Positions 3-24,423 of a stretch of DNA of 28,485 bases are shown one piece after another. Source of the DNA: Myxococcota bacterium. Its GTDB lineage: Bacteria > Myxococcota > XYA12-FULL-58-9 > JALHOP01. The notes beneath the pieces are model-generated. The model did no database searches and had not been told where the DNA came from. It worked only from the letters and a program-made list of their open reading frames with translations. How positions within the stretch are numbered: the first letter of the stretch is position 1; each line of letters starts with the position of its first letter. A program made the translations under genes and the position numbers. The stretch is from assembly GCA_041288095.1 (NCBI GenBank), contig JBGGMJ010000130.1, positions 1-28,485 of the forward strand, given 5' to 3'.

Positions 3-3000
3 TGTCGCCGCTTGGGCGCACGCCTCGCCAAGAACTACGACTACAAAGAAGCGAGTGAGTTCACGTCGATGCGCGCGCGCATCGAAACGCTCTTCGCCAA
101 GCACGAAGCGACGATCGGCACGCTGCGCAACGTCGCGACCGAGGGCGGGACGCTGAAGCGCCTGTTGCGCATGACGGTCGGTGCCCAAGGCGGACTCCAG
201 CTCGATGGCATCATTGCCGGTGTCGGTCGCGTGCTCGACGCGCAAGGGCCGGCCCGAGCCTATCTGCAAGACGTTTCCAAGCGGTTCCCCAGCGCGACCG
301 AGCAACTCATGCAGGTCTTGGGTCCGCGTCTCGACTGGTTCGAGACCGCCATCGTGAACGCCGGCACGACCCGTCAATCCGATCCATTGCTGCCGATCTT
401 CGACGGCGCGTGGCTCGGCAACGTGACCGCCGAGCTCCGCCGGGCCGAGCACACGGCTGGGCGCATCTGGAAGCTGGTCGACGGCCTGCCCGACAGCGTG
501 CGCGACCAGATGATGGTCGAGGTCGTCTCGGAAGACGCCATCAAGAGCGCCATGATCGAGAGCGCCGCACGCCGGCTCACCGAACGCCTCACCGGCCGCG
601 GCACCGACGCCAACAAGACCGCGTTCGACGTTGCAGCCGTACAGAGTCGGCCGCTGCCGGCGCTCGCTGGCCGGCCGAGGCTCGGCTACCTGTGCGCGGC
701 CCGAGGCATCCTGCAGGCGCCCGTGGAGCATGCCGTGGACATCGATCGCTTCGCGAGTGTCGCGCTCCGCGACGGTGATCGTCCCGCCTATTCCATCGAG
801 CACGAGCAGCGCGAAGAGGCGAAGCTCACCGACGCCGGCCGAGGTGACTACAACTTCTGGTGCCGCACGTTCGATCTCGACGCGCCACCGCATTCGTTCG
901 TCAACGAGCTCATGGGGTGGCGCACCTATCACGCGCCTGCTCTGCAAGAGATCGTCGCCCGCTGCGAAGCCGATGGCGACGCGCCCGATCTCGAGCGCAC
1001 CCTCGGCGAAATCGCTCAGCTCAGCTCCGGCACGCACTCCATCCCGGAGAGCGATGCACGTGGCGGCGTCGCGCGCATCGACAGCATCGCGCGACGTCTC
1101 GCGACGTCCGTGCAAGCCTTGGGCGATTTGACCCCCCTGCTCGACGTTTCGACACAACCTGTCTCCGTCCTGGTGGCGGCCGCGGCGGTGCTGCCGCGCG
1201 CCAAGGACAAGGCCGCGGCTCTGGAGCTCGTGACCCCGTGGCTGCGTCGACCCGACGCCCGCCTCCGCGAAGCCGCGCGCAAGTGCATCGCCGAGATTCG
1301 CGAGATCGGCGTGACCGACCTCATGGCTGAGCACCTGCGCGACAAAGATGATCGTCTCGTCCAGCTCTTGACGATGAACGACGTCGCCAATCTCCCCAAG
1401 GCATCGTGGGCGCTCGAGCACCTCGAAGAGCTGACCCGCGGTGAAGACGGCGCCGTCCGCGCCTTCGCAGCTCACACGCTCGCCACCCTCGCCAACAACG
1501 CGAAGGACCGCGGCGCGACAGAAGCCGGCAGCGTCTTGGTTCGCCTCCTCGGTCACGGCGACATCCACGTGGTGGAAGTGGCCTGCGAAGGGCTGCGTTC
1601 GCTCGCCGATGCGGGTAACGCCTTCACCAGCAAGCTCGCCGTCGACTGGGTGCTGCGCAATCGTCCGCATCCGCATGTTGCCGGCCTGCTCGAGCACATC
1701 GGCGAAAGCCAGCGCCTCATCGAGACCTTGACGCTCGAGGCTCGCGGCGCGCACGCGGCGCTGGTCGCCAAGCTCGGCGGCCAGGCCTCGCGGCCGCGCA
1801 TCGGCACCGCTTTTCGCAAGCTGAAAAGCAAGCAGGTCAGCCAGCGCAATCTCGCGGACACCGTGCTGAGCGCGGCCCGGGCGACGAAAGGCACGCCCGA
1901 CCTCGAAGCGGTGAGCGACCGCCTCAAGCTGGCGCTGCGACTGGTGAGCAAGTTCGAACACTGGACCACGACACTCGGCGCCGAGCTGCAAGACGCCCTC
2001 ACGACGCTCGACTACCCCGACGCCATCGTCGACGACGCCGTCGCCGAGCTGAGCGGCAAAGAGCCGCGCGGCTACCTCTCGAGTTGCCCCGAGCTGGTCA
2101 CGGCGATGTTCAGCTCGACCGATTTCTCGACCGCTGAGATCTGCGTCCTCGAGACCGGCCGCATCCCCGCGGAGCTCGCCGAGCTCGCGAACCATCCGAT
2201 CACGGCGGAAGGTTCGTGGCGGACTCTCAAGCTCGCGGACACGTTCAAGGACCCGGAGCGCTTCGGCGCGCTGGTCAAGGTCAAGCTGGCCTTGTCCTCG
2301 GATTTGCCGGGGCTGGTCGGCGAGGTCTTGGCGCACATCCTCGACAAGAAGACGCCGACCGCTATCGCGGGCATCGCCTACGACGCCATCGCCGATGTCC
2401 TCGAGTGTGAGATTCCCCTGCTCGATCCGAGGCTCGATGCCGAGCAGCGCAAGGAAGCGCTCGCGAAGGCGGAGCCCCTGGACCCGGCGATCGACGCGCT
2501 GGTCGAGCGCGCGGTGGTCGACCGCCTGGCGACGGTGGAGCCGACGAGCGAAGAAGCCAAGGCGCTCGTGCAGTACCTCGCGAGCGGCGAGTCCGCGGTT
2601 GCCCAGCGCCGCCTGAGCGACGCCATGGATCGCGCTATCAGCGAGCCGCAAGCGCGCCTCATCCTCGAGCCGGCACGCGCCCTGGCCCGCCGCCGCCAAA
2701 CCAGCGCGGACACGAAGACGCCGTGGCTCATCACCGTGCTGCGCGCGGCACCGCGAGCCACCATCGACCAAATCGTCACCGTGCGTGACGCTCGGCGCAC
2801 GACCGCCGCGGCAAGCGATCCCGCGAGCGTTGCTCTCGCGGGCGACCGCGTCGAGACTCTCGCGGCCGCGGTCATGGACAAGCGCGAGGACATCCCCGCG
2901 GATTTGCTCTCACCCCTGCTCGCCACCCTCGCCGACAGCGAGGACGACGCCAGCCGCCAAGCGAAGGTCGGCGGCCTCCGCGAAGTGATGTCCAACAAGG

Positions 3001-4787
3001 ACATTCCGTGGACGCCCGAGCGCATGAACGCCCTGCGCAACGGCTTGCTGGTCGTCCAGGCGAACAACCGTTACAACGCCATCGAGCGCAGCCTCGAGCA
3101 GGCACTCCGCTTTGCCGGACGTCTGCTCGACGCGAACCGCGGGCTCTCCGAGACGGACCTCGGCAAGCACTTCGAGATCCTGGCGCGCTGCTCCGACATG
3201 GACGCCAAGACCCAATACGCGAACAACGTCGTGAAGATGTACCTCGCGCTGGGCAGCGAAGGCACTCTGTCGCCGGTCTTCATCGAGCAAGTCGGCCGCT
3301 GGATTGCCGCGGTGGACGCGGGCACCGACACGCTATCGGAGCGCGATCGCAAGCGCGAAGTCGTTCTCTCGGGCCTGGTAGGTCTCTTGCCGCTCGACGA
3401 CGCGACCATCACACAACTGGTGCAGTCGTGCGCCGCCCTGTCGCTCCAGCGGACCGGCGATGTCTTCCGTGTCTTGAAGGATCGCATGGGAGAGGCACTG
3501 CTCACGCCCGACGACGTCAAGCGCATCGTCAGCAGCGGCGGCAGCGCCGAAGAGAACCTGTCGATCTTCGACAAGATGTTCGGCAGCCGCGTCTCGCTCA
3601 CGCGCTACAAGCCGAGCGCCCTCTCGACCTTCAACGACCCCCTCAAAGACGCCTGGAACGACAGCAACGAGGTCAAGGATGCCAAGCGCGCCATGCGCCG
3701 CAGTCTCGGCAGCCTCTTCGACGTCCTGGCGGCCCCGCGCGGGCAAGCCGCGGATGTCGAGCAAGTTGCCATCAGCAACCACGTCGGCAACTTCGTCTTC
3801 GGTGCGTGGTCACGTGGTGAAAACGAGGCGCGGAACGCGGAGCCGGCAAAGGCCTCCGGCAAGTCCGACAGGGCGACGGTGCTCTCGAGCGCCGACTACG
3901 CGGCTCACAAGGCGAACAGCGATCGCATCGAGGACGCGGCGCGCGCCCGCATCCTCGACGGCAAGCACCCCGTGGAGCAGCAGAGCCTGCTCATGATGCC
4001 GAACAGCATGGCCATCGCCAAGGCGTTCGACGGCTCCTTCGCTCGGACTATCGACACCGAGTGGGAGCCCGCCGCTCAGGGTCCGCGGCTCAACATGAAT
4101 CGTATGATCCTCTCCGAGCTCAACCGCATCGCCGCCGTCAGAGCGGCCGAGGAAGCCGAAGCTCGCGGTGAAACCGTCAACATCAGCGTCCCGAACGTCG
4201 ACGTTTGCGAGGTCCCGCGCGAGGTCGAAACAGAAACGAAGAACGTCAGGCTCCTCATCAACCTCATCATCGACAACTCGGACAGCACCAAGAAGCAGGA
4301 TCGTTTGGGCTACTTCAAACAGCTCTCGGTCATGCTGCTGAACTCATTCAGCGCCGTCGAGAAGCTCGAGCTGTCGAGCGCCCTGATCAGCTTCTCCGAC
4401 TTCGGCAACTTGCTGATGGCGCCCTCCCGCAAACACGACATCAAGACGATGGTCCAGGCGCTCGGCCCGATTGCGCCGGACCGGGGCACGAACCTCGCGG
4501 ACGGCCTCGACAAGAGCCGCGTCGCGGCGTCGACGGGCACCTACGACAAGGTGATTCATATCGTCCTCACCGACGGTCAACCCGATCGACTCGGCGATGC
4601 CCAGGCCGCGATCGCGACTCTGCGAGCCATGGGCCACGTCGTCGTCGGCTTCGGTGTCGGTCCCGACGCCCTCCATCTCGGCAACGTCTTCGGCGCCGGC
4701 GACACCATCTCCGAGAGCGATCCTGATCTGCTCTCCGGTCGCGTCTACAATTATTTGAAGGAAGTGGTGGACCGTGTTGCTAGTTGA
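3..4787 (+). CDS. Giant HEAT-repeat protein with C-terminal vWA (MIDAS) domain; 5'-truncated by the window edge
   Basis: The frame is open from base 3 (TGT CGC CGC TTG...), so the TTG at 12 is probably not the true start. HEAT-like units lie at ~1220-1610 (LVTPWLRRPDARLREAARKCIAEI; LEELTRGEDGAVRAFAAHTLATLA; LVRLLGHGDIHVVEVACEGLRSLA). The MIDAS is complete: LIIDNSDS (DxSxS, 4272-4286), GTN (T at 4488), IVLTDG (D at 4572). It is preceded by GPRLNMNRMI (4080-4109). Confidence 0.88.
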   Translation, partial: CRRLGARLAKNYDYKEASEFTSMRARIETLFAKHEATIGTLRNVATEGGTLKRLLRMTVGAQGGLQLDGIIAGVGRVLDAQGPARAYLQDVSKRFPSATEQLMQVLGPRLDWFETAIVNAGTTRQSDPLLPIFDGAWLGNVTAELRRAEHTAGRIWKLVDGLPDSVRDQMMVEVVSEDAIKSAMIESAARRLTERLTGRGTDANKTAFDVAAVQSRPLPALAGRPRLGYLCAARGILQAPVEHAVDIDRFASVALRDGDRPAYSIEHEQREEAKLTDAGRGDYNFWCRTFDLDAPPHSFVNELMGWRTYHAPALQEIVARCEADGDAPDLERTLGEIAQLSSGTHSIPESDARGGVARIDSIARRLATSVQALGDLTPLLDVSTQPVSVLVAAAAVLPRAKDKAAALELVTPWLRRPDARLREAARKCIAEIREIGVTDLMAEHLRDKDDRLVQLLTMNDVANLPKASWALEHLEELTRGEDGAVRAFAAHTLATLANNAKDRGATEAGSVLVRLLGHGDIHVVEVACEGLRSLADAGNAFTSKLAVDWVLRNRPHPHVAGLLEHIGESQRLIETLTLEARGAHAALVAKLGGQASRPRIGTAFRKLKSKQVSQRNLADTVLSAARATKGTPDLEAVSDRLKLALRLVSKFEHWTTTLGAELQDALTTLDYPDAIVDDAVAELSGKEPRGYLSSCPELVTAMFSSTDFSTAEICVLETGRIPAELAELANHPITAEGSWRTLKLADTFKDPERFGALVKVKLALSSDLPGLVGEVLAHILDKKTPTAIAGIAYDAIADVLECEIPLLDPRLDAEQRKEALAKAEPLDPAIDALVERAVVDRLATVEPTSEEAKALVQYLASGESAVAQRRLSDAMDRAISEPQARLILEPARALARRRQTSADTKTPWLITVLRAAPRATIDQIVTVRDARRTTAAASDPASVALAGDRVETLAAAVMDKREDIPADLLSPLLATLADSEDDASRQAKVGGLREVMSNKDIPWTPERMNALRNGLLVVQANNRYNAIERSLEQALRFAGRLLDANRGLSETDLGKHFEILARCSDMDAKTQYANNVVKMYLALGSEGTLSPVFIEQVGRWIAAVDAGTDTLSERDRKREVVLSGLVGLLPLDDATITQLVQSCAALSLQRTGDVFRVLKDRMGEALLTPDDVKRIVSSGGSAEENLSIFDKMFGSRVSLTRYKPSALSTFNDPLKDAWNDSNEVKDAKRAMRRSLGSLFDVLAAPRGQAADVEQVAISNHVGNFVFGAWSRGENEARNAEPAKASGKSDRATVLSSADYAAHKANSDRIEDAARARILDGKHPVEQQSLLMMPNSMAIAKAFDGSFARTIDTEWEPAAQGPRLNMNRMILSELNRIAAVRAAEEAEARGETVNISVPNVDVCEVPREVETETKNVRLLINLIIDNSDSTKKQDRLGYFKQLSVMLLNSFSAVEKLELSSALISFSDFGNLLMAPSRKHDIKTMVQALGPIAPDRGTNLADGLDKSRVAASTGTYDKVIHIVLTDGQPDRLGDAQAAIATLRAMGHVVVGFGVGPDALHLGNVFGAGDTISESDPDLLSGRVYNYLKEVVDRVAS

Positions 4788-5175
4788 TTCCATGTCCCGC
4801 CGCGCGAGCAAGCAGCTCGCCTATGCCGCGCGCTTCGAGCACCCGACCTTCCTCTACGGCACCAAGCTGGAGGTCGCCGCCGCTCACCTCGAGATCGAGC
4901 GCGCCGCCGGCAGCCGCGTCGAGCTGCTCGACCAGCGCACCATCATGGATGCGACCTTACTCGAGCAGAAGCTCGCTAAAGCGAACAAGCTGCACATTGC
5001 CATCGACTGGATCGTGACCCCCGAGATCGTCGAGACCTTCCGCCGTGCGTTCACGGTCCGCGGGTCGCGCCGATTCTTCGCGGTTCTCTCGAGCTGCGTC
5101 ACCTTGCCCAGCGACCTCGGCGTCGATCTGCGTGACGTGTTCTCGATTCTCATCGCCTGGGACGAGGTGCTGTAA
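4774..5175 (+). CDS. Small hypothetical protein, probable degenerate stand-alone AAA+ alpha/beta core
   Basis: It fills the gap between the two giant ORFs. The GTG at 4774 overlaps the upstream stop (alternative ATG at 4792), and its TAA overlaps the next ATG (TAATG, 5173-5177). Third codon positions are GC-rich. Segments KQLAYAARFEHPTFLYG, HIAIDWI, RRFFAVLSS and LGVDLRDVF parallel AAA core motifs. Confidence 0.75.
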   Translation: MLLVDSMSRRASKQLAYAARFEHPTFLYGTKLEVAAAHLEIERAAGSRVELLDQRTIMDATLLEQKLAKANKLHIAIDWIVTPEIVETFRRAFTVRGSRRFFAVLSSCVTLPSDLGVDLRDVFSILIAWDEVL

Positions 5176-8100
5176 TGCGACGTGTAAGCGGACTCAAAGC
5201 CAAGGCTGGCGCGGAAGGCGCGACCGAATCGACGGAGCAACCCCAGAGCAGACCCGCCGCCCTCCGCATGCAGAACGCCGCGGAGTTCTACCAGGTCCTC
5301 GGCGAGCGCCACTTCGGCGACGCCTCGACCCCGGTCGACGCCGCTCAGCTTGCCAACGTGCTCGGCGTCCATCGCTTCCGCGAGATGACCGCGCGCGTCC
5401 GCGATGAGGAAATCCGCAAGGCGGCGACCACACCGGGCGCGACGGTCACTCCAGATCGAATCTTCCGCGCCTGGGCAGGCCTCTTGGTCGACGACCTCAA
5501 GCGTCAGACCAACGCACCGGCGGACAGCGAAAGCGCCTTCAAGGAGGCGCTCGGCTGGGGCGAGAAGGTCCTGCTCGAGATGCGCTCGGAGCGGCGAATC
5601 GTCTACCGCAAGACCCTGCAGTCGACGACCGACTTCATCGGCATGGTCGGCGCTTACGAGCCCGAGGTTGCTCTGGCGCGCGAGCTCGCGAAGCGCGCCG
5701 AGCTCGGAGGCAGCAGCATCCTCATCGACGCGCTCGAGCGGTGCTACGTGCCCGGGGACATCCAACGCGCCATGGCCGCGCAGGTCACGACCCTCCCGAA
5801 AATCGCCAGCACCGCTCCTCAGGCACCCGCCGCGCTGGTGCAGGTGCGCCTCGACGACCTCGGCATCATCGACACCGTGCTGCTCGGCGACAACGCCTAC
5901 ATCTCCGAGATCGCGAAGCTCCGACAGAGCCTCGGCCTCAAGCGCTCTGTGCCCGGCTTGCAGCTCAACCTGCGCGATCAGGTCGACGGTCCGCTGGAGC
6001 TGCGTGAGACCTTCGGACGGCTCGCCGCCTCCCTCACCACCGGTGTCGACCAAGCGGCGCGTGAGCTCATCGTCATGCTGGCTCGCTTGCAGTCGAGCCC
6101 CGAGGTCACCACCGCGGTGAAGAAAGTGGCCTTCCTCCAGGTCGACGCGACCTTGCGGCGACTCTCGAAGGAAGCAACGGCGGCCGGCACTCAGTCGGCC
6201 GTGTTCGCGTCGTTCGCGAAGGCTTTGGTCGAAGTGCGGGCCAAGTTCGAGGAGGAGTTCCACAAGGCAGCCGGGAACAAGCTCGATCCGGCGATGCCGA
6301 AGATGCTGCGCGACAGCGTCGACAGTCTCATCAGCGACGTCTTCAAGGTCACCGGCGATGCCTTCTTCGCCGCCGAGCATATGGCCACCGCGAAAGACCC
6401 TGGCGCCATCCTGTTGCGCAAGGTGCTCGACGCTCCGGCGCGCGACGCGCTCGTCAACGCTGCCTTGTCACAAGCCTCGACGCCGGCGGCGCGCGCGGCA
6501 CAGATCGCGTTGATCGCGGACAAGGCGAAACGTGAAGCCGAGCTCGCCAAGCTCGTGGCGGCACACAAGGACTTCCGCCCCCCGGCGGAAGCTTCGGCGT
6601 TGCTCTTGTCGTGGCCCACCGACGTGCCACGGCCCAACACCGAACAAGCCGCCAAAGAAGACCGCGTCAAGCAGCTCGCGAGCCTCGGCGACAACAAGCT
6701 GGAACAGCTCATCGAGCAGGGCCTCGGCGAAACCGAAATCTTCAGCGAGCTCCTGCGCTTGGGTGGCCAGGGCCGCTTCCACGTGGGCGTCGACGACAGC
6801 AAGATCCCTCCGGCCATCGAGAAGATCATCCAGGGCCAGGCCAAGCCGGACAAGAACGCTTGGTTCGGCGGCGACACGCTGACGCCGCTGCTCGAGTCGC
6901 CCGCTATCGCGGCGCTGCCGGCGCAAATGTTGGCCGGCGCCAACGACGACGACGTGCGTAAGAGCTTGATCCGCGCCATTCGTAGCCAGAACGGCCAGCT
7001 CATCCACGAGGAGAAGGGCCTCCGCGCGCTGTTGCGGCACCCCGACCCGAAGTGCCGGATCAAGCTGCGGACCGTGCTCGAGGCGTTGGATCACACCGAC
7101 AAGAACCCCGATCCCGCGATGCCCGGACGCACGCTGAGCGCCGTCGAGCCGGGCATCAACGTGATCTTCGCTTATCGCGTCCTCGTGGAGTGCAGCATCG
7201 GCCTCGGCGCCGCGTCGGACGACGACATCCGCGCCGCTGGGCGTAAGCTGCTCAAGCGGACCGGCATCTCGTGCCTCGCGCCCTACGCGAGCATGTCGCT
7301 CGAAGAAAATCTCAACATGCTGATCAAGAAGCCGACTGACGGCGTGCCGCCGGACAGCCCGCACTTCTTGGCGTTGCTCGACCACCTGGACTTGCCCGAG
7401 ACCGCGCTCACCTCGATCGCCGCTCGCGATGATCTCGACGCGTTCCCGCCATCCACCCTCTTCGAGCTCTTCACGCGCTCCGTCGAAGACAAGTCCGTGC
7501 CCGTCGAAACGGTGGCCACTCTTACCGTCGCCGCGACCACGCTTCGCGCGAGCGGTACCAACGATGTCCATGCGACCAACGTGTGGGCGACCTTCAACGA
7601 TCTCGCCACGCGCAAGTACGACGCGAAGCTCGGGTCGCTCATCCTAGCCGGGATGTCCGGTAAAGCGAACATCGACGTCGTCTACCGGGCCGCCGCGTCA
7701 CTCGCCGCTGAAGGCCAGCTCTTCGACGCCAACGAGGTAGCCAACGCGGTCATGGCGCGCGATCCGGTCGCGACGCAAGCGCTCGTCAACGAGCTCGGTG
7801 CCCAGGCCCCGAAGTTCTTCCAAGCGCTGTCACTGGAAACGCGCGCGAAGCTTCTCGAGCGGGTCCTGAAGGGGCTCGAGTCCGCGACCGACGCCTCGGT
7901 GCTCGACATGGCCGGTCCCTGCTTCCAGCGCCTCGCGGAGCTGACCGCGGCTGGTCATCAGCCTGGCAAGGACATGGTCGCGGCGCTCGAGGGCATCGTC
8001 ATCAACGCGGTCACGCGCGTCGCCAAGAATCCACTCGAGACCGCGGCGCTGGCGCAAATCTTCGCCGACGCCCAAAGCAGCGGCGTCGACATCGCCAAGG

Positions 8101-10718
8101 TCGTCAAGACCATCATGACGGACGCCAAGACGAAGTCCCTGCAGACGTTGACGCCTGCTCAGCTCGCCGGTGTCCGCTTCGAGGTCGCACGCCTCGACCC
8201 GAGCAGTGACGTCGCTGATCTCAAGGCCGCGATCCCGGGCGGGAAGCTCGACGTCGGTCCCTACATGGCTGCCTTCGCGCTCGCCGAGCATCGCGCGCTT
8301 CCGGACGATGTCCTGCAGCTCCTCTGCCGCAGCGCCATCGCTTGGGCCGCCGACCAGAAGGCCTTTGGCCGCGTCGTCACTTTCCGCAAGAACCTCGCCG
8401 ATGCCGGTCAGCAAGATCGCCTCGCGATCTTCGACGCCGCCCTCGACGCCGCGATGAAGGACAAGCCCGACGTGTGGAGCGCGGTGCCCGAAGCGCGCGC
8501 GCTCCTGGCCATCAGCAAGCTCGAAGAACTGCGGCCGGAGATTCTCGAGCTCGCCTCCGGCGGCGACGACGTCGGTGAGCGCGCTCGCGCCCTGTGCGAT
8601 CGCATCGCCGCGTCCGGTCCCTATGCAGCCGAGCTCGTTCCGCAAGTGCTCTCGGCGCTGCGCCGCGAAGTCCGTGCCATGCGTCCGTCGCTCGACGATA
8701 TCCACGTCGGCCTCGAGGTCCCCGAGGACCCGCAGGCACCGGTGCGCAAAGCCGTTCTCGAGGTGCCGACCAAGAACTTCAATGGGCTCCCGCTTCGCCT
8801 ATTCCAGGGCGACACCAACCACGGCCGTGTGCCGGACGCGCTGCCTTTCACCGCGACGCCCACGGTCATGAACAACATGAAGCGCATGGCCGAAGCGGCC
8901 GAGAGCGAGGCCCCGTTCGTCGTCTGCTTGGGCGACCCCGGCCCCGGCAAGACGTACACAGCCAAGGTCTACGCGTACGAGACCGGTTCGCCGCTCGTCG
9001 AGCTCGACGGCGGTCCAGAGCGCCGCGCCGACGAGGCCGCCGGCGCCTGGGGACGCGACAAGCACGGCATGCCGGACTACGCCCGCGCCGCGGAGCTCGA
9101 GGTTTTCACCAAGGGCGGCATCATCGTCGACGACGAGTTCCAGGCGAGCCGCAGGTTCATCCTCGAGCAGCGTGGCGAGCAGGCATCGCGCTTCAACAAG
9201 AAGATCCTGATGCGCACCAACGAGACCGAAGTGGTGGAGCGCCATCCGCAAACCAAGATCTTTCTCATCGGCAACCTGCTGCCCGAAGAGATCCCCGCCG
9301 AGATCATGGAGTGCGCGAAGGTCATCTACTTCGACCCGCTCCCGATCGAGGAACAGATTGCGTTGGCTCAGCCCAAGGCACCGACGCTCAATCCCGACGA
9401 CCTCCAGCTCCTCGGCAAGATGCAAGTCACCGTCGAGGTGCAGAACAAGCACGAGAACTTCGGAAAATCGATCGCGCTCTCGGTGCGCAACCTGACGCGC
9501 GCCGCCAAGCGCGCCGAGCAGTTCCGCAGGGATCCCGAGCTCGCGACCGCGCGCTCCGCCCGTGAGAGCTACATCGACGGTGTCGTGAATCCGACGGTGA
9601 AGGCCAAGCTCAGCGAAGGCTTCAAGCTCGTGTTCGGCATCACGCCCGAAGAGACGTTGCCGGACCCCGCGAGCATCGAGCTCAAGCAAGGCCCGCGTTC
9701 GGTCAACATCGGCGAAGCCACCGTCTCGCACGGCCCCCACAAGCCCCTCGACCCCGCCAAGGTCACTGGCTACACCAACGGCATCGAGGTCCCGTACATC
9801 TTCGGCGACCGCGAGCGTGTCGAGCTCGAAGCGATGGCCAAGGCCATGCAGATGAACGAGAGCATGCTCTACGTCGCCGAGCGCGAGTCGGGCATCATGG
9901 GCATGATCGAGGCCATGTCACAGCTCACGGGTCTCGACCTCTGGGCCAAGGACATGACGCGCGAGATCACGGTCGCCGAGCTCTTCGGTGAGACCGCGTC
10001 GCGGCGCATCGACGACAAGAACTTCGAGACGTACTTCGCCCCCGGCATCATCAACAAGCTGAACAAGGCCAACAAGGGCGGCATCGTCGTGCTGCGCCAC
10101 GTCGATCGCCTGAAAGACGCGACCCGCATCCGTCTGCATCGCATGCTCGAGGAGCGCAAGATCCCCGGCGAAGGCGGCAAGATGGTCGATATGCACCCGA
10201 ACCTGCACATCATCATGACCACCTCGCCGAGCGAGAACGGCAAGATCGGGCTCGCGCTGCAGAACCGCATCACGCAGCGTTACCTCACGGCCAAGACCCC
10301 GGAAGAGGTGCAGGAGCGACTCGTCGCGATGGGCGAGAAGCTCAAGGTTCCGGCGATCATCGTCGAGGACATGGTGCGCTATCAAACCATGTGGACGAAG
10401 ATGCGCGGCAGCCTCATCGCCAAGTACGTGCTGCCGCACAACCTACCGCGACCGGGCATGACCAGGCTCATCACCTGGCTCAATGACTTCGCGAAGGTCG
10501 CCAAGGGCACCAGCGGCAAGGCCGGCGATGTCTCCGCGCAGATCCGCGAGACCTTGATCGAAGGCGGCCTCACGCACTACGCGGTGCCTGACCGTCGCGA
10601 CTACGACCCCTCGGGTCAGGCGAAGAAAGCCGATCTCGACCTCTTGCGCGAGATCCTGACCGCCATGGCGGACGGTAACGACGAAGAAGTGCTGAAGCTC
10701 AACGGCGGGATCAAGTAA
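5175..10718 (+). CDS. Giant helical/HEAT-like protein with two C-terminal tandem AAA+ modules (dynein-related/midasin/MoxR clade, AAA_5-like)
   Basis: 1847 aa. Module 1 (~8847-9640): FTATPTVMNNMKRMAEAA, Walker A GDPGPGKT (8931-8954), Walker B GGIIVDDE (9114-9137), RHPQTKIFLIGN (sensor 1), SVRNL (sensor 2). Module 2 (~9795-10718): NESMLYVAERESGIM, ELFG, GGIVVLRHVDRL, LHRMLEERKI, MHPNLHIIMTTSP, ALQNRI. HEAT-like motifs at ~6930-7260 (NDDDVRKSLIRAI; LLRHPDPKCRIKL; ASDDDIRAAGRKLL). Confidence 0.9.
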   Translation: MRRVSGLKAKAGAEGATESTEQPQSRPAALRMQNAAEFYQVLGERHFGDASTPVDAAQLANVLGVHRFREMTARVRDEEIRKAATTPGATVTPDRIFRAWAGLLVDDLKRQTNAPADSESAFKEALGWGEKVLLEMRSERRIVYRKTLQSTTDFIGMVGAYEPEVALARELAKRAELGGSSILIDALERCYVPGDIQRAMAAQVTTLPKIASTAPQAPAALVQVRLDDLGIIDTVLLGDNAYISEIAKLRQSLGLKRSVPGLQLNLRDQVDGPLELRETFGRLAASLTTGVDQAARELIVMLARLQSSPEVTTAVKKVAFLQVDATLRRLSKEATAAGTQSAVFASFAKALVEVRAKFEEEFHKAAGNKLDPAMPKMLRDSVDSLISDVFKVTGDAFFAAEHMATAKDPGAILLRKVLDAPARDALVNAALSQASTPAARAAQIALIADKAKREAELAKLVAAHKDFRPPAEASALLLSWPTDVPRPNTEQAAKEDRVKQLASLGDNKLEQLIEQGLGETEIFSELLRLGGQGRFHVGVDDSKIPPAIEKIIQGQAKPDKNAWFGGDTLTPLLESPAIAALPAQMLAGANDDDVRKSLIRAIRSQNGQLIHEEKGLRALLRHPDPKCRIKLRTVLEALDHTDKNPDPAMPGRTLSAVEPGINVIFAYRVLVECSIGLGAASDDDIRAAGRKLLKRTGISCLAPYASMSLEENLNMLIKKPTDGVPPDSPHFLALLDHLDLPETALTSIAARDDLDAFPPSTLFELFTRSVEDKSVPVETVATLTVAATTLRASGTNDVHATNVWATFNDLATRKYDAKLGSLILAGMSGKANIDVVYRAAASLAAEGQLFDANEVANAVMARDPVATQALVNELGAQAPKFFQALSLETRAKLLERVLKGLESATDASVLDMAGPCFQRLAELTAAGHQPGKDMVAALEGIVINAVTRVAKNPLETAALAQIFADAQSSGVDIAKVVKTIMTDAKTKSLQTLTPAQLAGVRFEVARLDPSSDVADLKAAIPGGKLDVGPYMAAFALAEHRALPDDVLQLLCRSAIAWAADQKAFGRVVTFRKNLADAGQQDRLAIFDAALDAAMKDKPDVWSAVPEARALLAISKLEELRPEILELASGGDDVGERARALCDRIAASGPYAAELVPQVLSALRREVRAMRPSLDDIHVGLEVPEDPQAPVRKAVLEVPTKNFNGLPLRLFQGDTNHGRVPDALPFTATPTVMNNMKRMAEAAESEAPFVVCLGDPGPGKTYTAKVYAYETGSPLVELDGGPERRADEAAGAWGRDKHGMPDYARAAELEVFTKGGIIVDDEFQASRRFILEQRGEQASRFNKKILMRTNETEVVERHPQTKIFLIGNLLPEEIPAEIMECAKVIYFDPLPIEEQIALAQPKAPTLNPDDLQLLGKMQVTVEVQNKHENFGKSIALSVRNLTRAAKRAEQFRRDPELATARSARESYIDGVVNPTVKAKLSEGFKLVFGITPEETLPDPASIELKQGPRSVNIGEATVSHGPHKPLDPAKVTGYTNGIEVPYIFGDRERVELEAMAKAMQMNESMLYVAERESGIMGMIEAMSQLTGLDLWAKDMTREITVAELFGETASRRIDDKNFETYFAPGIINKLNKANKGGIVVLRHVDRLKDATRIRLHRMLEERKIPGEGGKMVDMHPNLHIIMTTSPSENGKIGLALQNRITQRYLTAKTPEEVQERLVAMGEKLKVPAIIVEDMVRYQTMWTKMRGSLIAKYVLPHNLPRPGMTRLITWLNDFAKVAKGTSGKAGDVSAQIRETLIEGGLTHYAVPDRRDYDPSGQAKKADLDLLREILTAMADGNDEEVLKLNGGIK

Positions 10719-10721
10719 CGG

Positions 10722-11573
10722 TCAGCTACTCGAGGCGCTGAGCTTGCGATAGAGCTCGGTGCGGCGGTCGCGGAAGAAGCCGAAGGCGGCGCGGTTGCGC
10801 CGTACCTGCTCGAGGTCGAATGTCGCGGTGATGACACCGGCCTCGCTGCGTCCGAGCTCGGCGACCTTGTTGCCACGATGGTCCGCGATGAAGGAGTGAC
10901 CGTAGAACTCCTGACGCGGCTCCTTGCCAAAGCGGTTGGCGGCAACCACCGGCACGACGTTCGAAACCGCGTGTCCGATCATGGCGCGCTGCCATGGGTC
11001 CTTGGTGTCGAGGTTGGGTTCCTCGGGCTCGGTGCCGATGGCGGTCGGGTACATCAGGAGGTCGGCGCCCTCGAGCATCATGCCGCGGGCGCACTCGGGG
11101 AACCACTGATCCCAGCAGATGCCGACGCCGATGGTTCCGAACTTGGTGCGCCAGGCTTTGAAGCCGGTGTCGCCGGGCCGGAAGTAGAACTTCTCTTCGT
11201 AGCCCGGGCCGTCCGGGATGTGCGACTTGCGGTAGACGCCGAGCACCTTGCCGTCGGCGTCGATCATCGCGAGGCTGTTGTAGTAGCACTGCCCATCACG
11301 CTCGAAAAAGCTCGTCGGGATGGCGACGCCCAGCTCCGCTGCCAGACGAGAAAAATGAGCAATCGTCGGGTGACCCTCGAAGGGCGCGGCCAGGGCGAAG
11401 TACTCGTCCTTCTCGAAGGTGCAGAAGTAGATGTTCTCGAATAGCTCGGGGAGCAGCACGACCTGCGCCTTCTTCGAGGCGGCCTCGCGCGTGAGCGAGG
11501 TGCACAGCGCGATGTTCTTCTGGGTATCGGTGCCGAATGCGGCCTGAACCGCGGCGACGGTGATGTTCTGCAT
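10722..11573 (-). CDS. aguB: N-carbamoylputrescine amidase (nitrilase family)
   Basis: Nitrilase E-K-C triad motifs LLPELF, YRKSHIPDGPGYEEKFYF, ICWDQWFPE, plus YPTAIG and C-terminal GFFRDRR. Start set at ATG 11573 (MQNITV) with a GAGGA Shine-Dalgarno (SD) upstream. It lies 11 bp downstream of agmatine deiminase. Confidence 0.93.
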   Translation of the reverse strand: MQNITVAAVQAAFGTDTQKNIALCTSLTREAASKKAQVVLLPELFENIYFCTFEKDEYFALAAPFEGHPTIAHFSRLAAELGVAIPTSFFERDGQCYYNSLAMIDADGKVLGVYRKSHIPDGPGYEEKFYFRPGDTGFKAWRTKFGTIGVGICWDQWFPECARGMMLEGADLLMYPTAIGTEPEEPNLDTKDPWQRAMIGHAVSNVVPVVAANRFGKEPRQEFYGHSFIADHRGNKVAELGRSEAGVITATFDLEQVRRNRAAFGFFRDRRTELYRKLSASSS

Positions 11574-11584
11574 GGTGTTCCTCG

Positions 11585-12625
11585 TTACGCCGGCTGTTGC
11601 TGGCTGATGCAATGGAAGGCGCCACCACCGCTCAAGATCGCCAAGGCCCTGCACCCGATGACCCGGCGTCCGGGGAAGTGCTCCGCGATAGCGTCAACAG
11701 CGGCTCCGTCGACATCGGAGCCGTAGGTCGGCACCACGACCGTGGTGTTGGCGATATAGAAGTTCAAATAGCTCGCCGGCATGACGCGGCCGTCTTCGTC
11801 GCGCACCACTCCAGGCGAGGGGATGACGTTGACGTTCAAGGCACGCCCCTTGGCATCCACCATCGCGGTCAAGTCGCGCTCGATCTCCGCGAGCACGGGC
11901 TTGTTCGGGTCGTCGTCACGCCAAGAACGCATGCACAGGACCTTGCCGGGAGCGGTGAAGCGCGCCAGCGTGTCGATGTGCCCATCGGTGTGGTCGTTCA
12001 CCAAGCCTTCGTTCAGCCACAGCGTGCGCTCGACACCGAGGTTGTCCTTGATAGCGGTCTCGACGGCCTCTGCGGTAAGCGTTGGGTTGCGGTTCGGATT
12101 CAACAGGCACTGCTTGGTCGTGAGGCACGTGCCTTCGCCGTCGAGCTCGATGGAGCCGCCCTCGAGGACGACCGGTGAAACGAAGGTCGTGAGCCCGGCG
12201 GCCTGGGCGATGCGCACCGCAACGTCGTTGTCGTGGTCGAGGTTGTATTTGCCGCCCCAGCCGTTGAAGGCAAAGCGGGCGCAAGCGGGACCGCTGCCGG
12301 TAAGGAAGAGCGGCGCGATGTCGCGAAGCCAGATGTCGCCGAAGGGAATGGCGTGGAAGTCGACCGGCAAGCCACGCAGATGACGCTCGGCCTCGTGGCG
12401 GGCGGCGTCCGTGGGCACGAGCATGGAGATGCGCTCGCCGCGGGCGCGGCCGTTCTCGTCGCGGTCGGCGATCTCTTCGCAGAGCGCCGTGACCTCTTCT
12501 TGCGCCGGCGCCAAATTGTCGCGCCAGAGATCCGCGGCGCTCGGCCACGCGAGCCAAACGGTGCGATGCGGTTCCCATTCCGCGGGCATACGGTAGCCGA
12601 GACGCTTGGGCGACGGGTCGGTCAT
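11585..12625 (-). CDS. aguA: Agmatine deiminase
   Basis: RMPAEWEPH, DIWLRD, FNGWGGKY, LEGGSI, DHTDGHID, ASYLNFY and GGGAFHCISQQ (catalytic Cys). Strong SD AAGGAGG. Confidence 0.93.
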   Translation of the reverse strand: MTDPSPKRLGYRMPAEWEPHRTVWLAWPSAADLWRDNLAPAQEEVTALCEEIADRDENGRARGERISMLVPTDAARHEAERHLRGLPVDFHAIPFGDIWLRDIAPLFLTGSGPACARFAFNGWGGKYNLDHDNDVAVRIAQAAGLTTFVSPVVLEGGSIELDGEGTCLTTKQCLLNPNRNPTLTAEAVETAIKDNLGVERTLWLNEGLVNDHTDGHIDTLARFTAPGKVLCMRSWRDDDPNKPVLAEIERDLTAMVDAKGRALNVNVIPSPGVVRDEDGRVMPASYLNFYIANTTVVVPTYGSDVDGAAVDAIAEHFPGRRVIGCRALAILSGGGAFHCISQQQPA

Positions 12626-22717: not shown

Positions 22718-22789
22718 GGACGCATTCCAAGTTGCACGGCACGGCCCAAACACCATAAAGAAGCGGTGCAATTCGGCTGGAGCCCCAGA

Positions 22790-23305
22790 ATGCGTTTCTT
22801 GTCGTTGGCGGTTGTGTTCGGTGGTCTGTTGCTCGCGAGCGCTGTCGCTCGCGCCCAGGAAGAAGGCGGCAGCGAGATGCTGGCCGGCGCCGGCCTCGTG
22901 TTCGGCACCGAGACCGACACGCTGGGCCTCCAAGGTAACTTCTGGATGGGCCTGCCCCAGGTCAAAGGCCTGCGCCTCGGCGGCGACTTGGTGATCTACC
23001 TGCCCTTCGACCGCGGCGACGTCGACCTCTTCTGGCTGTCGATCAATCCCGGCGTGCAATACGTCTTCGACATCGGTGGCGTGCCGATTCGGCCGTACGC
23101 CGAAGCGGGCCTCGCGATTGCCTTCGTGCGCGCCAGCTTCCCCGGCGGCCAGAGCGACTCGGAGACCGAGCTCGGCATCAACCTCGGCGGCGGTGTCGAG
23201 TACGACGCCGGCTTCGCGCGCATCTACGGCATGCTGCGCTATCAGATCTTGGGTGACGACGCCGACCAGCTCGAGCTCGGCGGCGGTCTGCGCTGGGCCT
23301 TCTGA
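22790..23305 (+). CDS. Small outer-membrane beta-barrel protein (OmpA-TM/OMP_b-brl-like), paralog 1
   Basis: ATG 22790 with GGAG SD. Signal peptide ending ARA/QE, alternating hydrophobic beta-strands, RPYAEAGL, GINLGGGVEY, and C-terminal LRWAF. Confidence 0.85.
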   Translation: MRFLSLAVVFGGLLLASAVARAQEEGGSEMLAGAGLVFGTETDTLGLQGNFWMGLPQVKGLRLGGDLVIYLPFDRGDVDLFWLSINPGVQYVFDIGGVPIRPYAEAGLAIAFVRASFPGGQSDSETELGINLGGGVEYDAGFARIYGMLRYQILGDDADQLELGGGLRWAF

Positions 23306-23850
23306 TGCGCCTCGCTGTCGCTTTAGCGGTCATCGCCGTCTCGGCGGTCGCGGCCCCTGCCTCCGCGGGCGAGGTCATCATCGGCGCCGGCGTCGGCTAT
23401 GGCACCAAGATCGAAATGCCGGGTCTGCAGCTCGGCGGCTACTACGCTTTCGCCGGCAAGCTCGCGAATCTCCGCGTCGGCGGCGACATCGACGGCTTCA
23501 TGCCGAACAGCGACCGTGGCGTCGGCGGCGAGGGCAAGGTCACGTGGTTCGACGTCAACCTCAACGCGCACTACCTCATCCCCGGGCTCCCGGAAGACTC
23601 GCCGTTCTCGGTCTACGCCCTCGGCGGTCTGTCGCTCGCCATCGTCCATGCGAGCTTCACCTACGACGAAGGTGTGAACCAACGCGATCTCTCCGAGACC
23701 GAAGCGAAGCCGGGCGTGAACCTGGGTGCCGGAGCCGAATACGACATCAAGTTCGCGGCCGCTTACTTCGAGGGCAAATACGTCATCAGCTCCGCCGATC
23801 AGCTCGTGGTCTTCCTGGGCCTGCGCTTCGCCTTGCCGACTGGGCAGTAG
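23305..23850 (+). CDS. Small outer-membrane beta-barrel protein, paralog 2
   Basis: TGATG coupling to paralog 1. Signal peptide (ASA/GE), WFDVNLNAHY, YALGGL, GVNLGAGAEY and FEGKYVISSADQLVVFLGLRF. Confidence 0.85.
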   Translation: MRLAVALAVIAVSAVAAPASAGEVIIGAGVGYGTKIEMPGLQLGGYYAFAGKLANLRVGGDIDGFMPNSDRGVGGEGKVTWFDVNLNAHYLIPGLPEDSPFSVYALGGLSLAIVHASFTYDEGVNQRDLSETEAKPGVNLGAGAEYDIKFAAAYFEGKYVISSADQLVVFLGLRFALPTGQ

Positions 23851-24356
23851 CCGATGCGCTTCACCCCGCTCGTTGCCGCTTTGGCGGTCACTGCCGTGGC
23901 CGTGCCCGCTCTCGCGGATCACACCGTGGTGCAGTTCGGTCCCGCGTACGGCAGCGAGATCAAGACCCTCGGCGGTCACGTCGGGGTCTACTACGGCTTT
24001 CGCAACGAGGGTGACGCCGAATACACGACGTTCCGCTTCGGGCTCGAGGCCGACGCCTTCTTTCCCAAAAGTGGCGACACGGTCGACGGCAGCTCGAAGC
24101 TGAGCTGGTGGGATCTGAACGGCAACGGTCATTGGCTCTTCCTCGAGCCCGACGAAGTCCCGGTGGCCGCCTACCTGCTGCTCGGTATCAACGTGGCGCG
24201 CATCGGCAGGTCGTTCACCTATGATGCGGGCGTGGTCCCGCGCGACGAGGACACGCACGCCTGGAAGCTCGGCGGCAACATCGGCGGCGGCGTCGAGTAT
24301 CGCTTCGGCTCGGTCGCGATCTTCGTCGAGGGCAAATACGTCATCAGCTCCGCCGA
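23768..24356 (+). repeat. 31-nt perfect direct repeat (23768-23798 and 24326-24356) shared by barrel paralogs 2 and 3
   Basis: TCGAGGGCAAATACGTCATCAGCTCCGCCGA is present identically in both genes, encoding EGKYVISSA. Confidence 0.85.
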
Positions 24357-24423
24357 ACAGGCCGTCGGCTTCACGGGCGTGCGCATCACGCTGCCCAAGA
24401 AGAACCGCGTCGACGGTCTCTAG
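23854..24423 (+). CDS. Small outer-membrane beta-barrel protein, paralog 3
   Basis: Signal peptide (ALA/DH), WWDLNGNGHW, YLLLGINV, GGNIGGGVEY and VEGKYVISSAEQAVGFTGVRI. Confidence 0.85.
   Translation: MRFTPLVAALAVTAVAVPALADHTVVQFGPAYGSEIKTLGGHVGVYYGFRNEGDAEYTTFRFGLEADAFFPKSGDTVDGSSKLSWWDLNGNGHWLFLEPDEVPVAAYLLLGINVARIGRSFTYDAGVVPRDEDTHAWKLGGNIGGGVEYRFGSVAIFVEGKYVISSAEQAVGFTGVRITLPKKNRVDGL

Follow-up and report, generated by a model that had tools for sequence, protein, structure and literature searches.

The window, the whole stretch of DNA that was analysed, comprises 28,485 nt of contig JBGGMJ010000130.1 from a bacterium of the phylum Myxococcota and encodes, on its forward strand, a giant AAA+ protein of 1847 aa. 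The C-terminal part of this protein is probably a fused two-module unit with one live site per chain, in which the second module (M2) would supply the arginine finger that completes the active site of the first (M1). Both modules are genuine AAA+ domains of the MoxR/midasin/dynein (AAA_5) clade. According to the mechanism proposed here, the last 628 residues would form an ATPase of that clade with a single complete catalytic site: M1 would bind ATP through Lys1259, Asp1320/Glu1321, sensor-1 Asn1367 and sensor-2 Arg1438, and M2 would pack on it like the next neighbour in a ring and provide the trans-acting finger Arg1698. The pocket of M2 itself, with Ile-Met and Arg-His at its key positions, would be dead, and the M1 residue that would serve that pocket is other than Arg, so that M2 would act as a built-in activator and structural module. 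The gene, its domains and its motifs are as follows.

5175..10718, forward strand: gene of the AAA+ giant, an open reading frame (ORF) of 5544 nt (1847 aa), with about 1220 aa without an assigned family followed by two tandem AAA+ modules.
8907..9359, forward strand: large alpha/beta domain of module 1 (M1), residues ~1245-1395.
8931-8954, forward strand: Walker A of M1, GDPGPGKT, residues 1253-1260, with Lys1259.
9120-9137, forward strand: Walker B of M1, IIVDDE, residues 1316-1321, with Asp1320/Glu1321.
9273-9275, forward strand: sensor-1 Asn1367 of M1.
9312-9314, forward strand: Cys1380, at the finger position of the M1 Arg-finger segment IPAEIMECA (residues 1373-1381).
9360..9584, forward strand: lid domain of M1, residues ~1396-1470, helical in the AF2 model and carrying sensor-2 Arg1438.
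9486-9488, forward strand: Arg1438, within the M1 sensor-2 string SVRNL (residues 1436-1440).
9585..9803, forward strand: beta-rich connector between the modules, residues ~1471-1543, with a conserved ...IGEA/IGD... motif.
9804..10289, forward strand: large domain of module 2 (M2), residues ~1544-1705, carrying the degenerate Walker A and B and the conserved Arg finger.
9876-9899, forward strand: degenerate Walker A of M2, AERESGIM, residues 1568-1575 (Lys replaced by Ile, Thr by Met).
10086-10106, forward strand: degenerate Walker B of M2, VVLRHVD, residues 1638-1644 (Asp-Glu replaced by Arg-His).
10266-10268, forward strand: Arg1698, the finger of M2, within IGLALQNRI (residues 1691-1699).
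10290..10715, forward strand: lid of M2 and C-terminal helices, residues ~1706-1847; in the alignment the sensor-2 position is non-Arg, unlike that of intact relatives.

The seven motif strings quoted in the preliminary description of this DNA were all found at these positions in the ORF 5175..10718. In addition to the Walker A and B motifs, M2 of the window protein lacks the sensor-1 Asn. The best sequence match in the PDB was midasin 6or5 (1.7e-06). In the phmmer alignment with this protein, Cys1380 was aligned to the Arg of the midasin string ...NRF, Arg1698 to the Arg of ...RNRG and AERESGIM to GETGTGKT; the motif assignments are right, beyond judgement by eye, because the midasin alignment places them, and the presence of Cys at the M1 finger position and of Arg at that of M2 was thereby confirmed. 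Comparison with the AAA_5 profile gave a more divided result. The whole protein matched Pfam AAA_5 in two stretches (1e-08, 35.7 bits; cut-off 22), as did M2 scanned alone (8.7e-06, 26.2 bits), but M1 scanned alone reached just 0.0076 and 16.7 bits against AAA_5, below the 22-bit cut-off, its match above cut-off being to AAA (PF00004; 6.9e-05, 23.7 bits, cut-off 21.2). The midasin-type lid AAA_lid_7 was not detected in the window protein by the Pfam scan; it was detected in the family members P0008 and P0009 (handles of the form P0008 designate proteins retrieved in the searches, and G001 to G003 related genomes). Residues 1-1219 showed no Pfam family at cut-off and no AAA match at E up to 10, a search of the ESM Atlas for these 1219 aa returned nothing, and a scan with NCBIfam gave no useful match.

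A word-indexed search yielded only three close homologues, with 63-80% identity, and among 41 related genomes the AAA+ giant was present in four species of one genus, with one weak match elsewhere. An exhaustive HMMER search retrieved 62 matches at E up to 0.001, which fall into three groups. The first shares the architecture of ~1800 aa and includes P0007 (38%), P0008 and P0009 (27%), two fragments and the shorter P0012; P0007 aligns with the window protein end to end at 32% identity, and P0008 is alignable at both ends, over ~250 aa at the N-terminus and ~740 aa at the C-terminus. The second group consists of two-module AAA_5 proteins with other architectures, and the third of many proteins of 2000-5400 aa, in four of which the domains were checked; among these, P0013 (4005 aa) is midasin-like, with six AAA_5 stretches and a C-terminal VWA domain. 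When related loci were sought with A2, an alignment of closer sequences, the genome contigs yielded the three known related genomes and no others, and the JGI metagenomes yielded no matches. The family is thus very small, being formed by four species of one uncultured Myxococcota genus and a few metagenomic sequences.

The conservation of the motifs was scored on alignment A1, of 13 rows (11 of the family and two intact relatives), and counts were taken over the family rows that hold the region concerned; two of these rows, P0010 and P0011, are overlapping fragments and not independent. In M1, the Walker A Lys followed by Ser/Thr is present in 10 of 10 rows, the Walker B Glu in 10 of 10 (with the Asp changed to Asn in G003), the sensor-1 Asn in 11 of 11 and the sensor-2 Arg in 11 of 11, and indeed in all 13 rows of the alignment. 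The canonical M1 finger column, on the other hand, holds an Arg in none of the 11 rows (C, N, N, H, N, H, H, E, H, H, G). In M2 the finger Arg is retained in all ten rows. The Walker B Asp-Glu pair of M2 is present in none of ten (RH, RN, RY, RN, HN, DD, RN, RH, RN, RH), the Asp position being Arg in eight of them; the Walker A Lys is kept in 5 of 11 rows, and the Ser/Thr that follows it in 0 of 11. This live/dead pattern persists across the family down to about 22-27% identity. Alignment with homologues, which had been proposed as a check, therefore upheld a live M1 and a dead M2 as a family trait but not the Cys itself: Cys1380 is not conserved, and the three closest relatives have Asn there. 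Outside the family, the six intact two-module relatives that were scored (P0014, P0015, P0022, P0040, P0050 and P0056) carry Walker A, Walker B and finger in both modules in 6/6 cases.

The degenerate P-loop of M2 is rich in Asp and Glu in the window protein and its relatives (ERE, ESE, DND, PDE). Speculatively, a salt bridge may occupy the dead pocket instead of a nucleotide.

An AF2 model of residues 1220-1847 (628 residues), built on a 13-row alignment, had a mean confidence (pLDDT) of 85.3 and a pTM of 0.82. The strands of the connector correspond to model residues 284-321, and its ...IGEA/IGD... motif is common to the intact two-module relatives. The top Foldseek matches of the model were dynein motor domains (TM score 0.62-0.64 by query). 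In a second structural comparison with VIA-align, in which 884 chains were aligned, the two modules superposed as one unit on residues 869-1498 of Mdn1 (Z 24.6, 496 residues, root-mean-square deviation (rmsd) 4.4 A), on human dynein 1873-2530 (Z 22.8, 535 residues) and also on yeast dynein 1763-2352, with Z about 21-23 for the dynein superpositions overall. We take these dynein stretches to be AAA1-AAA2. The single modules superposed on NorQ and CbbQ with Z 16-18 and rmsd 2.6-3.6 A overall: M1 (model residues 1-269) with Z ~18, rmsd 2.6 A and ~250 of 256 residues, and M2 (model residues 310-613) on NorQ with Z 16.4. Paired strands were modelled at 71-85 and 125-135 in M1 and at 386-404 and 443-453 in M2, and look like they sit where the H2 and pre-sensor-1 inserts are expected in both modules.

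In the model, M2 is predicted to sit beside M1 in the way that the next module of the ring does in midasin and dynein. According to PMC4047620, the site of a dynein module n is located in the cleft between it and module n+1, whose large subdomain supplies the finger. Since M2 is the next neighbour in the model and the dynein cleft is arranged in this way, we infer that the M2 finger completes the M1 site of the same chain, and Arg1698 most likely reaches the ATP of M1 within one chain. The earlier proposal that only the M1/M2 interface is catalytic gains from both lines, that is, from the conserved complementary live and dead motifs and from a model geometry like that of dynein AAA1-AAA2 and of neighbouring modules of Mdn1.

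Several observations weigh against a single live site completed by M2. The side-by-side geometry is a prediction from an alignment of 13 rows. In 4 of 11 rows (G003, P0007, P0008 and P0009) there is an Arg two positions before the M1 finger column, G003 has a further Arg adjacent to the canonical position, and a two-residue gap near the finger makes the register ambiguous in P0008; in alignment A1 the window protein has no Arg two residues upstream. M1 is itself imperfect in some relatives: in G003 the Walker B Asp is Asn (FIVDNEF) and the Walker A reads GDPGSAKS, in P0005 the latter reads GAPGVSKS, in P0007 it begins with Ser, and Ser or Ala replaces the Gly before the Lys in P0005, G003, P0008 and P0009. 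Because of these imperfect motifs, the M1 site could be a slow switch, not a motor. Finally, P0008-P0012 retain the Lys in the P-loop of M2, and in this branch M2 may still bind nucleotide.

The live/dead state arose once, from two-module ancestors with both sites intact, and purifying selection has maintained it. The maximum-likelihood tree comprised 15 rows and omitted P0003 and P0004 (the G001 and G002 proteins, already entered under those names), P0006 (a fragment 100% identical to the window protein) and the fragments P0010 and P0011. A branch with 100/100 support separates its nine degenerate rows from the others, and degeneration was therefore a single inherited event, retained over long branches, which provides no replicated evidence. 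The nearest neighbours of the degenerate family in the tree are the intact two-module AAA_5 proteins, of which the family is, judging from the sequences, an offshoot. The preliminary description had seen in the protein an intermediate between MoxR and midasin, a role for which these intact proteins are better candidates.

M2 is under purifying selection and is not decaying. The ratio of nonsynonymous to synonymous substitution rates (dN/dS) of its large domain was 0.19 against G001 and 0.16 against G002, and that of M1 was 0.11 and 0.26, respectively. Ratios against G003 (0.55-0.79) were unreliable and were not used as evidence; the dS against this genome, 0.67, does not exceed the values for G001 and G002, which are much closer, and so points to saturation. 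What is selected is the retention of the M1 motifs, of the M2 finger and of a folded M2. The M1 finger column seems to have lost its Arg by drift once the M2 site was dead. The argument that the matched losses speak for selection did not hold: they represent one event in the tree, the M1 finger column varies among C, N, H, E and G, and an Arg stands one to two residues away in 4 of 11 rows.

The AAA+ gene is the last of a cassette of three genes, which stand in the same order (VWA giant, 127-aa ORF, AAA+ giant) in all four genomes of the genus. The two upstream genes are:

3..4787, forward strand: gene of the upstream partner, with HEAT repeats and a C-terminal VWA domain, at least 1594 aa and cut by the contig end.
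4792..5175, forward strand: 127-aa ORF between the giants, with a stop codon that overlaps the ATG of the AAA+ gene.

The VWA domain (about nt 4263-4667; PF00092, 2.5e-08, 34.8 bits) was missed when the whole protein was scanned against Pfam and surfaced only in a separate scan of the last 247 aa. It contains the strings DNSDST, GTN and LTDG, which presumably fit the MIDAS consensus. Full-length HEAT-VWA relatives in three related genomes have 1950-2143 aa, and the G003 copy likewise ends in a VWA domain. The AAA+ chain of the window terminates with the M2 lid and carries no VWA/MIDAS domain of its own. The AAA+ giant most likely partners the upstream HEAT-VWA giant as a remodeller of the MoxR-VWA type.

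The 127-aa ORF has counterparts with 67-86% identity in three related genomes and no match in Pfam or PADLOC. Its ESM Atlas model (pTM 0.79) was nearest to AAA+, IstB and pol III delta-like cores (TM score 0.63-0.71 by query), and the AF2 model was of low confidence (pLDDT 54.7). The protein may be a third, degenerate AAA-like component, a reading for which the Atlas model is the single source because the AF2 model was too poor to search with. On the sequence features, the system is a MoxR-VWA pair of unusual size with a small third component. There are no grounds for placing it among the known defence systems, the PADLOC matches of the two giants being marginal only (IetA 0.0051, OloA 4.9e-05). 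In G003 (L010 11867-13162, forward strand) a 431-aa ORF without a Pfam family starts 4 nt past the AAA+ gene; it is not present at the corresponding place in the window or in G001.

The system was compared with characterised ones. With the MoxR-VWA pairs NorQ-NorD, CbbQ-CbbO and RavA-ViaA it shares the AAA+ clade, each module superposing on NorQ and CbbQ, and a VWA-domain partner encoded adjacent to the ATPase. The MoxR-VWA ATPases, however, have a single module in about 260-500 aa and assemble into homohexamers whose six sites are equivalent, whereas here two modules are fused, with one complete site and an unassigned N-terminal part of ~1220 aa, and the VWA partner, with its HEAT repeats, reaches about 2000 aa. 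According to PMC13036017, such pairs probably act by remodelling via the VWA partner. Midasin (Mdn1/Rea1) gave the best PDB sequence match and the best structural match over both modules, and is likewise a giant protein with a VWA/MIDAS partnership and with the AAA_lid_7 found in P0008 and P0009; its single chain holds six modules and MIDAS, whereas the window protein has two modules and the VWA domain belongs to the protein encoded upstream. Dynein, on whose presumed AAA1-AAA2 stretch the two-module model superposes, has six modules in a closed chain, together with a linker and a stalk, in contrast to the two modules found here. Dynein AAA2 still binds a structural ATP, whereas in M2 both the Lys-Thr of the P-loop and the Walker B pair are missing. 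Some modules of dynein have lost nucleotide binding and yet stay in the ring, as PMC4047620 reports.

The intact two-module AAA_5 proteins share the two-module layout, the lid and the beta-connector motif, but are mostly shorter or have other N-termini than the degenerate family; the cluster of P0015, one of them, carries the source name 'midasin'. In its design the unit resembles Torsin with LAP1, since M1 is a catalytic module without a finger of its own and M2 has the AAA+ fold, no nucleotide motifs and a finger Arg. Torsin and LAP1 are separate proteins of another AAA+ clade in the eukaryotic ER, whereas the two parts are fused here in one bacterial chain of the MoxR clade. Other precedents for dead partners are the clamp-loader delta-prime subunit and the alpha3beta3 ring of F1-ATPase. 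In the Torsin-LAP1/LULL1 system the ATPase is completed by an AAA+-like partner that lacks nucleotide motifs but whose finger position is strictly conserved as Arg, and a ring in which the two proteins alternate, (LAP1-Torsin)3, with three live sites, has been proposed (PMC4358337). An engineered ClpA with alternating inactive modules is described in PMC7568338. In the open-access literature no paper was found on fused two-module MoxR-clade proteins, either degenerate or intact. The design of a live ATPase with a dead, finger-donating module thus has precedents in Torsin-LAP1 and dynein, and what is new here is the fused version in the MoxR clade.

With regard to the oligomeric state, the arrangement that survives best, at a little less than an even chance, is a head-to-tail pseudo-hexamer, (M1-M2)3, with three live M1/M2 and three dead M2/M1' interfaces and with the VWA domain in the pore as in NorQ-NorD. 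Every characterised relative works as a ring of six modules. In NorQD and midasin, the VWA finger is inserted into the ring pore (PMC13036017). In the intact relatives, the M1 finger and the M2 site would be useful only if chains join head to tail, and in the model both modules appear to retain the strand pairs at the places of the H2 and pre-sensor-1 inserts. When a second M1 was docked on the full unit (898 residues), the interface score ipSAE was 0.50, compared with 0.00 for the best control, a result classed as weak support; the individual runs gave 0.52, 0.50 and 0.50, the partner had a pLDDT of 76 or more, and 88% or more of the contacts were common to the runs. In the calibration, the mark was reached by 116 of 157 solved complexes and by 2 of 215 mismatched pairs, and scores of 0.60 or under included only 18 of the passing solved complexes and both passing mismatches. 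Against a ring of three chains, the docking gave no interface and so no position for the second M1, and its pass may be a memory of solved AAA+ rings; moreover, the sequence holds no sign that the dead M2/M1' interface is still kept, and the motif pattern would be just as likely in the absence of a ring. The pattern cannot separate the two, because in a protein that forms no ring the M1 finger would be without a target and the M2 site without a finger, and the same decay would follow.

The absence of a ring is the next arrangement to be considered, and an unlikely one, though by no means negligible: the two modules would be a stand-alone one-site nucleotide switch or clamp on the long N-terminal arm, with the VWA protein bound elsewhere. 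The complementary losses are exactly those predicted by a lost oligomerisation, which would leave the M1 finger and the M2 site without partners; the M1 finger column is free to drift, with C, N, H, E or G, and the docking of a second M1 was no more than weakly supported. In dynein, the loss of the AAA6 site accompanies an altered AAA6/AAA1 interface, according to PMC4047620. On the other side, the apparent pore-facing inserts of the model are kept in both modules, and the VWA partnership is conserved, the ring pore being used in the solved cases (PMC13036017). Moreover, no characterised member of the MoxR/midasin/dynein clade is known to work outside a six-module ring.

A mixed ring, composed of the two-module unit and of other AAA-like subunits such as the 127-aa protein or the MoxR paralogues of the genome, is improbable. 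The 127-aa ORF is conserved and its translation is coupled to that of the AAA+ gene, its Atlas model is nearest to AAA+/IstB/pol III delta-like cores, and the genome holds 56 AAA_5 matches; nevertheless, the AF2 model of the small protein is poor (pLDDT 54.7), Pfam and PADLOC give it no match, and a TM score of about 0.7 is weak evidence for a small alpha/beta domain. Least probable by far is a stacked double ring of the ClpB/p97 type, with M1 as a homomeric tier and M2 as a second tier: type II AAA+ proteins usually carry two AAA+ modules per chain, but M1 is fingerless and M2 siteless, no tier would hold a complete site, the modules lie side by side in the model as in midasin and dynein, and the relatives in sequence and structure (MoxR, midasin, dynein) are single-tier, and this arrangement was therefore rejected. 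The complete picture of a fused engine and activator that forms a trimer with alternating live and dead sites, is driven by a giant VWA partner and represents a bacterial split relative of midasin is doubtful as a whole.

Outside the cassette, the following genes lie side by side downstream of it.

10722-12625, reverse strand: carbon-nitrogen hydrolase gene and Porphyromonas-type deiminase gene.

They are similar to N-carbamoylputrescine amidase and agmatine deiminase, and are likely a pair of the putrescine pathway; the same pair is present in G001, and the genes differ in G003. They were taken as unrelated neighbours of the cassette. Further along the window (22766-24423, forward strand), three consecutive ORFs of 179, 181 and 189 aa each have a match to OMP_b-brl, which exceeds the Pfam cut-off only in the middle one (181 aa). 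In the same genome, outside the window (G000:C190:13568-15799, reverse strand), an open frame of 4179 aa with at least three AAA_5 matches was found, and may encode a multi-module midasin-like giant.

Fused two-module AAA_5 proteins are documented in bacteria, both intact and half-dead. The practical weight of the present case is limited, the family being small and the design principle already precedented. How many sites, and which ones, a ring ATPase needs is an old question that has usually been approached with engineered rings; a natural pair of live and dead modules per chain in the MoxR clade, if true, would be a clean system for it, and the same protein would also help to show how VWA partners are coupled to such rings. 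The two-module proteins bear on the origin of the six-module midasin and dynein from MoxR-like ancestors, a subject treated in PMC3495828. If the alternating trimer is true, a ring of the MoxR type can run on three non-adjacent sites and, together with the intact relatives, this family would belong to a living series that leads from the one-module MoxR to the six-module midasin and dynein.

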